IMG/VR virus record: IMGVR_UViG_3300025413_001239 | Direction: 5' to 3' (one strand) | Source of the DNA: a virus | Taxonomy: Duplodnaviria; Caudoviricetes | Length of the DNA: 64,000 bases | Shown here: positions 5,935-60,527 of the stretch, in pieces | Numbering within the stretch: position 1 is the first letter of the stretch | Layout of the letters: every line of letters starts with the position of its first letter | Notes under the pieces: generated by a model | Database searches by the model: none | What the model saw: the letters and a program-made list of their open reading frames with translations, nothing else | What the model was told of the DNA's origin: nothing | Translations under genes and position numbers: made by a program

Positions 5935-6005
5935 GGTTCTATAGCTCAACGGCAGAGCTGGACTCTCTAAAAGTCTTGATGTTGGTTCGATTCCGACTAG
6001 AATCA
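5935..6005 (+). tRNA. Amber suppressor tRNA (anticodon CUA)
   Basis: Full cloverleaf: GGTTCTA/TAGAATC acceptor, GCTC/GAGC D stem, GGACT-CTCTAAA-AGTCT anticodon arm (CTA at 5967-5969), GTTGG-TTCGATT-CCGAC T arm, A73; own promoter at ~5900. Confidence 0.9.
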
Positions 6006-6053
6006 CACTTTACATTTTTTAACAATTATTGTATATTTATAAAAAAAAGAAAT

Positions 6054-6410
6054 ATGACACATTAGGTATCTAACACTGAGAAATTAAGAGTAATCACAAG
6101 AAGAGACTTGAGTTTAGGGTATCAAGCAACAATGGCATGTCATGCTGCAATAGACTTTCAGCACGAACATATAGCTGAGTCGATACAATGGCACAAGTCA
6201 TCTAATTATTTAGCCATTTTAACTGTTAAAGACGAACAAGAACTTATTGACTTAATGGTCAAAGTTAGTCTTAGAGGTATTAAGTATACCATTTTCCGTG
6301 AACCAGATTTAGAGAATCAAATTACAGCTGTGGCTTTAGAAGCTACAAATGCTAGTAAAAAAGTAACAAGTTCTTTACCATTACTTGGAAAGGAGGTAAG
6401 TTATGTATAA
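6054..6410 (+). CDS. Peptidyl-tRNA hydrolase (Pth2-like) with in-frame TAG at codon 4
   Basis: ATG ACA CAT TAG GTA TCT... continues in frame into KLRVITRRDLSLGYQA..CHAA..FREPDLENQITAVAL; conserved N-terminal strand lies upstream of the TTG used by the ORF track. Confidence 0.75.
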
Positions 6411-6753
6411 TTTACTAGAAAACGAAACTTGTAGTTTACAGGGTTGTTTAGCTGATAAAGCTTATGCTATTGTTGATTTATCAACGAAAAGGGTTCATAG
6501 AATAAGTTTCAGCAAATCATTATTAGAGCATATTATAGACACAACCGATAGTCCTTTTGTTGTAAAAGAGGTAACATTTGTTTTAGGTCGAAAATTGTTA
6601 AGTGGTGAAACTAGTTTAACGGGTATATATGCCTTGGTTAAGAGTAAAAATAATTGGACATTACGAATTTCTTTATTTAAAGATATTGCAAACTATCTTT
6701 GTGATTTTGAAACTAGAAGTCTTAGAGAGTGTATAATAACAAAAATTAATTAA
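6403..6753 (+). CDS. Hypothetical protein
   Basis: ORF overlapping the pth stop. Confidence 0.6.
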   Translation: MYNLLENETCSLQGCLADKAYAIVDLSTKRVHRISFSKSLLEHIIDTTDSPFVVKEVTFVLGRKLLSGETSLTGIYALVKSKNNWTLRISLFKDIANYLCDFETRSLRECIITKIN

Positions 6754-6757
6754 TAAA

Positions 6758-6965
6758 GCGCCTTTAGTTTAACTGGATAAAATATCCGAGTCGAATCGGA
6801 AGTGGTGTTGGCTTTTTAAGGTTGTGAAAGCTAGATTGAAACGTCAAAGGGAGGTTGCAACAGTACCGATGATTAGTAAACTAGTTAGTAATGGTAAACG
6901 GGCTAAAAAACGTATTTAGTCTCTTAACTGGTCAAACGGTGGGGGTTCGAATCCTTCAGGGTGCT
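6758..6965 (+). ncRNA. tRNA-like RNA with 6-nt anticodon loop and ~140-nt structured insert
   Basis: GCGCCTT/AGGGTGC acceptor, Arg-type D arm, TCCGA-GTCGAA-TCGGA arm, GGGGG-TTCGAAT-CCTTC T arm; insert 6801-6940. Confidence 0.7.
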
Positions 6966-7082
6966 CATTAAATAACAAATTAAAAATAGAAAAATATGAG
7001 ATAGGTAATCAGGGGTCCAACATGACTTTAAATTTTATAAAAAAAACATCAACAATAACAAAAAAAATAAAATTTAAAGAAA

Positions 7083-7385: not shown

Positions 7386-7411
7386 AAAGGGAGAAGAAAT
7401 TCTCCTTTTTT
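7386..7411 (+). terminator. Intrinsic terminator
   Basis: AAAGGGAGAA-GAAA-TTCTCCTTT plus T run. Confidence 0.7.
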
Positions 7412-19783: not shown

Positions 19784-19785
19784 CA

Positions 19786-19870
19786 CGGAAAAAATTCCTA
19801 GGGATAGGAACTATCTTGATAAAGATAAGTACTGCACGAATCATAATAAGTTCGAATCTTAATTTTCCGC
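19786..19870 (+). pseudogene. Degenerate tRNA-like element (6-nt loop TGATAA, long variable region)
   Basis: CGGAAAA/TTTTCCG, TTCC/GGAA D stem, TATCT/AGATA stem, TAAG-TTCGAAT-CTTA T arm. Confidence 0.5.
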
Positions 19871-19910
19871 AACGGAGAATCACAACTCTAAAAAAAATGT
19901 GAAACTGGAG

Positions 19911-19983
19911 GGGGGGTCATGTACCAAGGCTGGCGAGAAATACTTGCAATATTTCTGGAAGATTTCAATTATCTTACTCTCCA
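19911..19983 (+). tRNA. tRNA-Ala(UGC), atypical D arm
   Basis: Loop CT-TGC-AA in AAATA/TATTT stem; G3.U70 and A73 alanine identity elements; AAGAT-TTCAATT-ATCTT T arm. Confidence 0.7.
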
Positions 19984-20046
19984 CAGGTGTCACTGATATA
20001 CTGACCGAGCATGGGGATTAGTAATAATCCCTAGTATATCTAATAA

Positions 20047-59800: not shown

Positions 59801-60457
59801 ATGGAACTAAAAGAAGCGTTACAAAGGTTTAAGGACTTAAACTTAGAGAAAGCAGTATTAACCTTTGATTGTGGTGGTGATAGTATGGGTGATACTAGTT
59901 GGGAGTTATTATTAGCTGATGGTGAAGCAGTTAAGGACGATGATTTGGAAAGTTACTTTGACGATGAAGTTTATAGGGAAGTAGAGTTCTATGTTAATTC
60001 CGATGGGTATTACAACGGTGAAGCAGGTACTGTTGAGGTTACTATTGAAACTGACGGTGAGGATGATGAATTTTTCAGTTATTATAAGGATGCTATGAGT
60101 GAGTTTACAGAGCAAACCACTAACATCATTGAGGTTAAATTAACGCCCGAAATGTTAGCTTTCATTTCTGAAAATGTATCAAACATTAATGGTGATGATA
60201 GTGGCTTTACTATCAATTACAAAAAAGACTTGCTTTTGACTGATGAACAAGAAACGCTTGTTGATGAGATTGAAAACTTGTTACAAAAGGAGTGTGAAGA
60301 ATATGAGCCTGAAATGGAAGGTGATGATTGCACACTTGAAGATTGGTTTAGTTATACCACAAATTCGGATAATGACGAATTAACTGAATTAACTATTAAA
60401 GACGATAACCTTTTGGTTATCCTTACTAATAGTTTCCAAACATTTAGTGAAAGTTAG
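59801..60457 (+). CDS. Acidic DUF6878-like protein
   Basis: FDCGGDS..N.DG..G motif. Confidence 0.55.
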   Translation: MELKEALQRFKDLNLEKAVLTFDCGGDSMGDTSWELLLADGEAVKDDDLESYFDDEVYREVEFYVNSDGYYNGEAGTVEVTIETDGEDDEFFSYYKDAMSEFTEQTTNIIEVKLTPEMLAFISENVSNINGDDSGFTINYKKDLLLTDEQETLVDEIENLLQKECEEYEPEMEGDDCTLEDWFSYTTNSDNDELTELTIKDDNLLVILTNSFQTFSES

Positions 60458-60527
60458 GAAAAAGATTTGGGGGTATAGAAATATACCCCTATATTTGCAT
60501 TATTAAATAACACATAAAATACAGATT

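Follow-up and report, generated by a model that had tools for sequence, protein, structure and literature searches.

A 64,000-nucleotide (nt) stretch of viral DNA (Duplodnaviria; Caudoviricetes; IMG/VR record IMGVR_UViG_3300025413_001239), which we call the window when we mean the whole of it, carries at positions 6758-6965 of its plus strand a 208-nt element that looks like a transfer RNA (tRNA) with a large folded domain in its variable arm. This element is a real, conserved and structured RNA gene, and it represents a new family among the tRNA-like non-coding RNAs (ncRNAs) of phages, a kind of RNA that is already known; the family has no entry in Rfam 15. The reading that we favour, to which we would give slightly more than half of our confidence, is that the product of the gene is a stable RNA of tRNA shape that does not decode, descends from an arginine tRNA and would act as a scaffold for displaying a conserved cargo. 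What is unusual here is the combination of a cargo on the variable arm with retained arginine identity marks. An initial annotation, made from the letters of the window, had offered three readings, and of these the tRNA mimic or decoy and the ncRNA carrier have fared well, given that frame and cargo covary and that the loop is non-decoding, whereas the intron-like element has not.

The gene encodes no CCA, ends in a U discriminator (6965) and scores 172 bits against R1, our model of the family. Its parts lie in the window as follows.

6758-6764 with 6958-6964, plus strand: acceptor stem, GCGCCTT paired with AGGGTGC, including G3.U70 and U6.G67
6767-6783, plus strand: D arm, stem GTTT/AAAT, loop AACTGGATA with G18, G19 and A20
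6785-6800, plus strand: equivalent of the anticodon arm, 5-base-pair (bp) stem TCCGA/TCGGA and 6-nt loop GTCGAA
6808-6820, plus strand: 5' strand of closing helix Pa, TTGGCT, a 2-nt internal loop and TTAAG, pairing with 6923-6935
6821-6894, plus strand: rod, an irregular hairpin of about 75 nt with helices Pb, Pc, Pd/Pe and Pf and three internal loops
6849-6867, plus strand: rod apex, GGGAGGTTGCAACAGTACC, nearly invariant, a UGCA loop closed by GU/AC
6900-6922, plus strand: 3' branch of the cargo, which in the window copy is a single 8-bp hairpin (from single-sequence folds and the alignment)
6923-6935, plus strand: 3' strand of closing helix Pa, CTTAA, CT and GGTCAA
6936-6940, plus strand: 3' end of the variable region, ACGGT, with U48 able to form a Levitt pair with A15
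6941-6957, plus strand: T arm, GGGGG TTCGAAT CCTTC, with the T-loop consensus evident in the sequence

The insert enters between positions 45 and 46 of the variable region, and 138 nt separate the anticodon-type hairpin from the T arm in the window copy, the variable region of relatives being 145-152 nt long. Two pairings close it, TTGGCT (6808-6813) with GGTCAA (6930-6935) and TTAAG (6816-6820) with CTTAA (6923-6927). Much of this had been anticipated by the initial annotation and is borne out by the sequence of the window copy: the acceptor stem with its G3.U70, the D and T arms, the 6-nt loop GTCGAA (in the hairpin at 6785-6800), the long variable-arm insert with both closing pairings, and an open frame across that insert (frame 1, 48 codons, ending in TAG) are all there. 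Two of its hints do not extend to the family, however. Pair 3:70 is GC in four sequences, CG in two, GU in one and UA in one, and the open frame is not conserved among homologs, which led us to reject a protein-coding insert.

The homologs were found by searching with a 116-amino-acid (aa) protein, whose gene is the upstream neighbour of the element, and then inspecting the contigs that encode its relatives. In six further lineages a homologous RNA lies directly behind the 116-aa gene, the neighbouring proteins being 60-79% identical to the window's, at the following loci and positions.

L060, 616-829: homolog
L062, 1773-1999: homolog, with close variants in L063, L064 and L065
L066, 2857-3077: homolog
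L068, 2849-3066: homolog
L030, 3366-3583: homolog
L070, 2006-2227: homolog

The window's own contig was recovered from several bog-lake metagenomes, and the element is 100% identical in each, so that other contigs of the same phage offer no variation usable for covariation. Our main alignment, A2, holds eight sequences (the window and seven from the six other lineages), for which we counted pairs in a structure that we had specified, and the counts ignore phylogeny. Standard pairs occupy 94.3% of the pair cells and 26 of the 42 pairs are altered on both sides, while none of 500 shuffles matches the real alignment on any of five measures, and sliding the structure by 1-3 columns leaves 38-54% of cells paired. 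Covariation among homologs, which the initial annotation had named as a check, is found for every tRNA stem and for closing helix Pa. In the acceptor stem all seven pairs are kept across the family and six of them are altered on both sides; the D stem is paired in 100% of cells, with two pairs altered on both sides, and the T stem in 95%; the anticodon-type stem reads TCCGA, CCCGA, TCCGC, GCCGC or TCTGC, each with its matching partner. In Pa each of the 13 aligned pairs has been altered on both sides in at least part of the family, and no two lineages have the same helix sequence. Indeed, the acceptor-stem and Pa sequences have been fully turned over, yet they still pair. Beyond the helices, the ACGGT or TCGGT at the 3' end of the variable region is kept in six of the eight sequences, and position 48 is T in all of them. 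There is one orthologous locus per phage, and the window holds no repeat copies; a DNA insertion resembling a miniature inverted-repeat transposable element was rejected, because the closing helix differs in sequence from lineage to lineage yet pairs, and there is one copy per genome.

The cargo has its own structural record. RNAalifold applied to the rods alone recovers Pb, Pc, Pe and Pf; 90.8% of the cells in the rod alignment pair and seven pairs are altered on both sides, a result equalled by 0-2 of 500 shuffles, and in each copy rod-like folds have the minimum free energy or come close to it. This covariation supports Pb and Pc, the short apical helices Pe and Pf never being altered on both sides. 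In each of the three internal loops a GAA-type strand faces an AGUA-type strand, which we read as the probable signature of loop-E or sarcin-ricin (bulged-G) motifs. The purine pair beside Pf is A.G in L066 and L070 and G.A in all others, and in the middle loop L070, alone among the copies, has CAA for GAA on one strand and AGCA for AGUA on the other; taken together, this swap and the two-strand change suggest that the rod loops are structured. The apex, with the consensus GGRARGUUGCAAC(R)GUACY, is nearly invariant. Within it, GTTGCAAC is self-complementary, identical in all eight sequences and present once in the 64-kb window, and the palindromic tip GUUGCAAC is likewise invariant, self-complementary and found a single time in the window. 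After the rod, relatives have two hairpins, giving a four-way junction, where the window copy has its one 8-bp hairpin.

Judged by its nucleotides, the tRNA frame is arginine-tRNA-like, a point absent from the initial annotation. The cloverleaf is complete, with acceptor, D, anticodon and T stems of 7, 4, 5 and 5 bp and with the T- and D-loop consensus, and after removal of the insert in silico each of the eight sequences is recognised as a tRNA by ARAGORN at its default thresholds: Arg(tcg) in L066, Arg(acg) in L070, Ser(act) in L030, and a tRNA without an isotype in the five copies whose loops have 6 or 11 nt. Against 79 distinct tRNAs from related phage loci, phage tRNA-Arg ranks 1-3 for most frames, and still does so for five of the seven frames when the anticodon arm is left out. 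The Rfam tRNA model covers the L030 copy end to end at 34.1 bits, and this is the only copy to pass the gathering threshold of RF00005 (29 bits). The window copy itself is detected neither by default ARAGORN nor by Rfam, where the search suggested by the initial annotation returned no family match to it, RF00005 included, at E up to 10.

It is the loop and the variable region that depart from a working tRNA. Loop lengths in the seven lineages are 6, 6, 6, 7, 7, 7 and 11 nt, the loops being GUCGAA, GUCUAA, UGUCGAA, UGACGAA, AUCAAAGCGAA, UUCGCA and CUACUCA; all have C35 and A38, with G or U at position 36, and G33 occurs in four lineages and C37 in two. A canonical decoding loop (7 nt, U33, purine 37) is lacking in the window copy, with its 6 nt, and the varied length together with the frequent loss of U33 indicates that decoding has been given up in most lineages, the window's included; going by these loops, we predict that most copies, among them the window copy, cannot decode. 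Nor is the variable region of normal size, which is 4-5 nt in class I and up to about 20 nt in class II, against 138 nt in the window. The bacterial determinants for ArgRS are A20 (the main one), C35, U or G36 and A or G73, and U73 is listed as an arginine determinant too (PMC9976931). The D loop CUGGAUA supplies A20 in all lineages except L030, and position 73 is A in all copies except the window's, which has U73. The tRNA-Arg identity set thus appears largely kept, and charging with arginine is a prediction from it.

How might such an RNA work? In the reading that we favour, the tRNA frame (acceptor stem, D arm, vestigial anticodon arm and T arm) would make the transcript a substrate for RNase P at its 5' end, for 3' trimming and for CCA addition by a host or phage enzyme, and would protect the RNA, while the retained ArgRS recognition set may allow it to bind ArgRS or to be charged. 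The variable arm extends into a conserved cargo of about 140 nt, which would be the working part and may bind a protein or RNA partner within the tRNA and translation-rescue module in which the gene lies (suppressor tRNA, Pth2 and the 116-aa protein). Candidate partners are the local translation-rescue proteins, ArgRS in combination with an anticodon nuclease of the host directed at tRNA-Arg, or a second copy of the RNA through the palindromic tip. There is an engineered precedent, in which the Spinach aptamer placed in the variable loop (V-loop) of Escherichia coli tRNA-Tyr was stably expressed, charged and used by ribosomes, whereas D-loop and T-loop insertions were not stably expressed (PMC5397188). 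Since the V-loop tolerated a large domain in that study, we read the element as what may be a natural version of the same design.

A bolder proposal, which we judge unlikely and offer tentatively, is that the RNA, while unable to decode, receives arginine from the host ArgRS, and that the loop-E-rich rod uses this charged or ArgRS-bound body outside normal elongation. It is the retention of A20, C35, G or U36 and A73 that leads us to propose charging. Under this proposal the RNA might lure or trap those anticodon nucleases of the host that cleave tRNA-Arg, serve at stalled ribosomes as an arginine-specific means of rescue or sensing, or act as the donor in a non-ribosomal arginyl transfer. If it were true, this would be the first natural tRNA with a functional domain of about 140 nt as its variable arm; we know of no natural tRNA whose variable arm exceeds about 20 nt. 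The capacity of the V-loop for an aptamer of about 100 nt was recognised by engineers only recently, and a phage lineage has apparently reached the same V-loop design, keeping the cargo and the ArgRS marks and losing the decoding loop.

Several points weigh against a functional scaffold, and we take them seriously. The covariation counts, drawn from seven lineages, take no account of phylogeny, and those seven lineages, all from uncultured phages, are the only ones known. The window copy is the shortest and most reduced member of the family, with a shorter 3' branch, a weak Pb and the lowest R1 score (172 bits, against 195-217 bits for the others), and it could be decaying. The 116-aa gene is present without the RNA in three related phages (L027, L028 and L069), so the RNA is dispensable. 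Finally, the arginine identity nucleotides could be relics of descent that are not under selection.

The family has so far been seen only in ENA, JGI and Logan assemblies, and other searches drew blanks. A blastn search of a phage collection gave no match to the element; pattern and protein searches of IMG/VR gave no further homologs (the pattern produced only chance hits); one pattern scan of JGI metagenome data gave 26 chance matches, in coding or unrelated DNA, and one scan of GTDB genome data gave three, all in coding DNA. These last resemble what we take to be ribonucleotide-reductase genes. Weak matches of R1 to the rod at 60447-60511 of the window and in L002 proved to be unrelated hairpins. 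On the huge-phage records LR756500, LR756501 and LR756504, the matches of R1 were confined to ordinary tRNAs and to further long genes of tRNA-like build whose inserts are unrelated. LR756500.1 and LR756501.1 (L082-L088) hold several genes of 110-205 nt with tRNA acceptor, D and T arms and large, mutually unrelated inserts, one of these genes (L088) being the immediate upstream neighbour of the suppressor tRNA in the LR756500 Pth2 module. RNAs of tRNA shape that carry a cargo appear to be common in huge phages.

The first of the other explanations is a Y-RNA-like partner of a phage Ro60-like protein, in which the tRNA-like body and its cargo would dock a Ro60/TROVE-type ring, as YrlA does in bacteria and in some phages; we regard it as unlikely. 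The idea is a natural one, because YrlA RNAs mimic tRNA and Yrn1 of Deinococcus radiodurans has a 5-bp anticodon-like stem with a 6-nt loop (PMC4201824), much as in the element's hairpin, and because in Myxococcus phage Mx1 the homolog of the 116-aa gene follows Pth, the pair lying about 1 kb downstream of a TROVE-domain gene. Strings resembling the Rsr-linked GNCGAAN0-1G occur in the loop in three lineages (GTCGAA, GACGAAG, GTCGAAG), and GAYGAAG stands just before the 3' strand of Pa in four, but such strings are missing from several lineages. With the Rfam YrlA model (RF02553), whose cut-off is 69 bits, the best match scores no more than 25.8 bits and extends over the T arm and a neighbouring tRNA; dimeric tRNAs are a false match against which users of the YrlA model have been cautioned (PMC4201824). 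Moreover, the ends of the element form an acceptor stem and not a Ro-binding stem, and no TROVE or DUF2828 gene occurs within 2.5-3 kb on either side at the seven loci, whereas YrlA genes lie within about 4 kb of rsr, on the same strand (PMC4201824).

We are distinctly doubtful that this is a tRNA-Arg gene whose insert is removed, by self-splicing or by an endonuclease with phage RNA ligases, to leave a working tRNA-Arg. The long closing helix does juxtapose both junctions, deletion of the insert in silico gives an ARAGORN tRNA in all copies (a tRNA-Arg in two of them), and ARAGORN at relaxed thresholds even proposes an intron model. That model, a tRNA-Lys(ctt) with a 132-nt intron, we rejected, as relaxed settings give about 40 mostly spurious calls in the window and its anticodon stem is not conserved in homologs. 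Joining the exons in silico fails to restore a canonical tRNA in four of the seven lineages, where 6- or 11-nt loops remain, and two of the three 7-nt loops have G33. The insert sits in the variable region and not in the anticodon loop, its junction sequences are not conserved, and none of the Rfam models for introns or ribozymes recognises it at E up to 10. At 138-152 nt it is also shorter than any self-splicing group I intron known to us. The intron-like option of the initial annotation therefore falls, on the site, the Rfam result and a canonical (7-nt) loop in just three of seven lineages after removal, while its own statement that this is no anticodon-loop group I intron stands, with no match to Rfam Intron_gpI at E up to 10.

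It is improbable, in our opinion, that the gene makes a working class-II-style tRNA-Arg with a giant variable arm, charged and entering ribosomes with its cargo at least in the lineages with 7-nt loops. The V-loop Spinach tRNA-Tyr does work in translation (PMC5397188), the ArgRS identity set is kept, and the 7-nt loops of L066, L070 and L030 present the anticodons UCG, ACG and ACU, respectively. However, L066 and L070 have G in place of U33 and L030 has C at position 37, while loops of 6 or 11 nt are found in the window copy and in three further lineages. The cargo, moreover, is branched and exceeds Spinach in size.

Very improbable is a decaying tRNA-Arg pseudogene, disrupted by an insertion and itself without function. 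Non-canonical loops, the absence of the element from three related phages and the reduced state of the window copy would all suit it, but covariation speaks against it, every stem being kept by compensatory change despite the full turnover of the acceptor and Pa sequences; the cargo core is invariant among lineages whose neighbouring protein is only 60-79% identical, and the single orthologous locus per phage, in a window devoid of repeat copies, also counts against decay.

A miniature or divergent ribosome-rescue RNA of the transfer-messenger RNA (tmRNA) type is the least probable of all and largely refuted, tempting as it was made by the alanine mark G3.U70 and the 48-codon open frame of the window copy, by a module devoted to translation rescue (Pth2, an RF-1-domain protein in L028, SmpB in a related contig) and by the true tmRNA that follows the 116-aa homolog in Synechococcus phage BUCT-ZZ01: the mark is confined to the window copy, one of eight sequences, the D stem is complete and accompanied by an anticodon-like arm, the homologs share no reading frame or tag, and neither the Rfam tmRNA models nor ARAGORN -m give a match, in the same kind of search that scored the cyanophage tmRNA, a chance positive control, at 112 bits. 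In this the initial annotation, which had set tmRNA aside on account of the D stem, was right.

With the non-decoding, cargo-bearing RNA preferred, it is worth looking at the company it keeps. The window is AT-rich phage DNA, and the element belongs to a co-oriented block that runs from a suppressor tRNA(CUA) through a Pth2 gene (identified by Pfam PF01981), the 116-aa gene, the element, a small amber minigene and an open reading frame of 99 aa to a terminator-like hairpin. The landmarks in the window are these.

5935-6006: suppressor tRNA(CUA), start of the co-oriented block that holds the element
6403-6753: 116-aa gene, upstream neighbour of the element
7386-7409: terminator-like hairpin, end of the block

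The element begins 4 nt past the stop codon of the 116-aa gene, so the two are probably co-transcribed, and we infer that the element is cut out of the co-transcript. A tRNA comes after the element within a few hundred nt in L030, L062, L066 and L068, and in L030 and L062 the tRNA that follows has the CUA suppressor anticodon. An AlphaFold model of the 116-aa protein has a pLDDT of 80, and there was no informative match to the protein in Pfam, PHROGs or the PDB (by sequence, Foldseek, VIA-align and ESM Atlas). Its family, which is unannotated, recurs in the tRNA regions of unrelated phages (Mx1, Alishewanella, Synechococcus, Pseudomonas and Klebsiella; L089-L093), often beside Pth, TROVE, tmRNA or tRNA genes, and in the Alishewanella, Pseudomonas and Klebsiella phages the homolog sits inside tRNA arrays.

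Some of these neighbourhoods hold RNAs of their own. In Synechococcus phage BUCT-ZZ01 (ON615601.1; L091 2452-2852) a clear and unannotated tmRNA, scoring 111.9 bits with Rfam tmRNA_permuted and 94.5 bits with beta_tmRNA, lies just downstream of the 116-aa homolog. In Mx1 (OR576727.2; L089 2416-2490) an unannotated tRNA (Rfam, 31.7 bits) occupies the gap after the homolog, about 1.5 kb downstream of the TROVE-domain gene. In addition, genes for SmpB (PF01668) or a small RF-1-domain (ArfB-like) protein occur at most 1-2 kb from the same module in related phages (L028 1259-1663, L066 1-186 and the P0010 contig), and these neighbours point to a phage-encoded ribosome-rescue toolkit.

Two further features of the window deserve mention. 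The amber minigene downstream of the element (6996-7025) consists of ATG, one codon and TAG, followed by a strongly conserved string, TAGATTATCAGAGGNCCAAC, which also occurs in L027, L028, L060, L062, L066, L068 and L070 and at about 6298-6332 of L001, and is retained by every relative, even the distant huge phage LR756500 and the phages that lack the tRNA-like RNA. Because the second codon of the minigene varies (AGA, TTA, ATG or none), what is conserved seems to be a signal in RNA or DNA and not a peptide. Elsewhere, between tRNA-Asp and tRNA-Phe, a second odd tRNA-like stretch (19785-19880) is bounded by CGGAAAA/TTTTCCG and contains a T loop that reads TTCGAAT and a hairpin of anticodon type, whose loop has 6 nt (or 4 nt if the stem is taken as longer); it is followed at 19911-19984 by a weak tRNA-Ala(tgc), which ARAGORN calls only at relaxed thresholds.

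If the element is expressed, it would bring a family of tRNA-like phage ncRNAs that is new and not represented in Rfam 15, an added component for the little-understood tRNA and translation-rescue modules of giant phages, and a natural scaffold design for displaying RNA domains. The rod, with its three loop-E-type motifs and its invariant palindromic tip, is a practical handle for a partner search.

Where, then, does this RNA stand among known systems? With bacterial tRNA-Arg (RF00005) it shares the full cloverleaf, the T- and D-loop consensus, the A15-U48 Levitt pair and the ArgRS identity nucleotides, and phage tRNA-Arg genes are the nearest bodies to its frame; it differs in its loop of 6-11 nt, often with G33, in encoding no CCA, and in a variable region of 138-152 nt where known tRNAs have at most about 20 nt. 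The phage T4 RNAs RNAC and RNAD (species 1 and 2) have tRNA-like ends and processing and, to our knowledge, are shorter and do not form a complete cloverleaf with a cargo on the variable arm. Small, stable and encoded among phage tRNA genes, they have a function that is still unknown (PMC9697503); the likeness to the element is one of genomic setting only, and Rfam 15 has no covariance model for them. YrlA and Yrn1 (RF02553) are tRNA-mimicking ncRNAs found in phages as well, with T and D arms, and some YrlA RNAs are cut by RNase P and given CCA (PMC4201824), but theirs is a permuted tRNA whose ends form the Ro-binding stem, whereas the ends of the element form an acceptor stem. Like the element, tmRNA is a tRNA-like RNA with a large internal domain that phages encode in similar rescue neighbourhoods; there the insert replaces the anticodon arm, the D stem is lacking, G3.U70 is obligatory and a tag reading frame is present, and none of these is conserved in the element. 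Similar in design is the engineered V-Spinach tRNA-Tyr of Masuda et al. 2017 (PMC5397188), in which a large folded domain stands on the variable loop, the only insertion site that yielded stable RNA, and the rest of the tRNA is intact. Such V-loop tRNAs and recombinant tRNA scaffolds are man-made and have a working anticodon, whereas the element is natural, conserved in phages and without canonical decoding loops.

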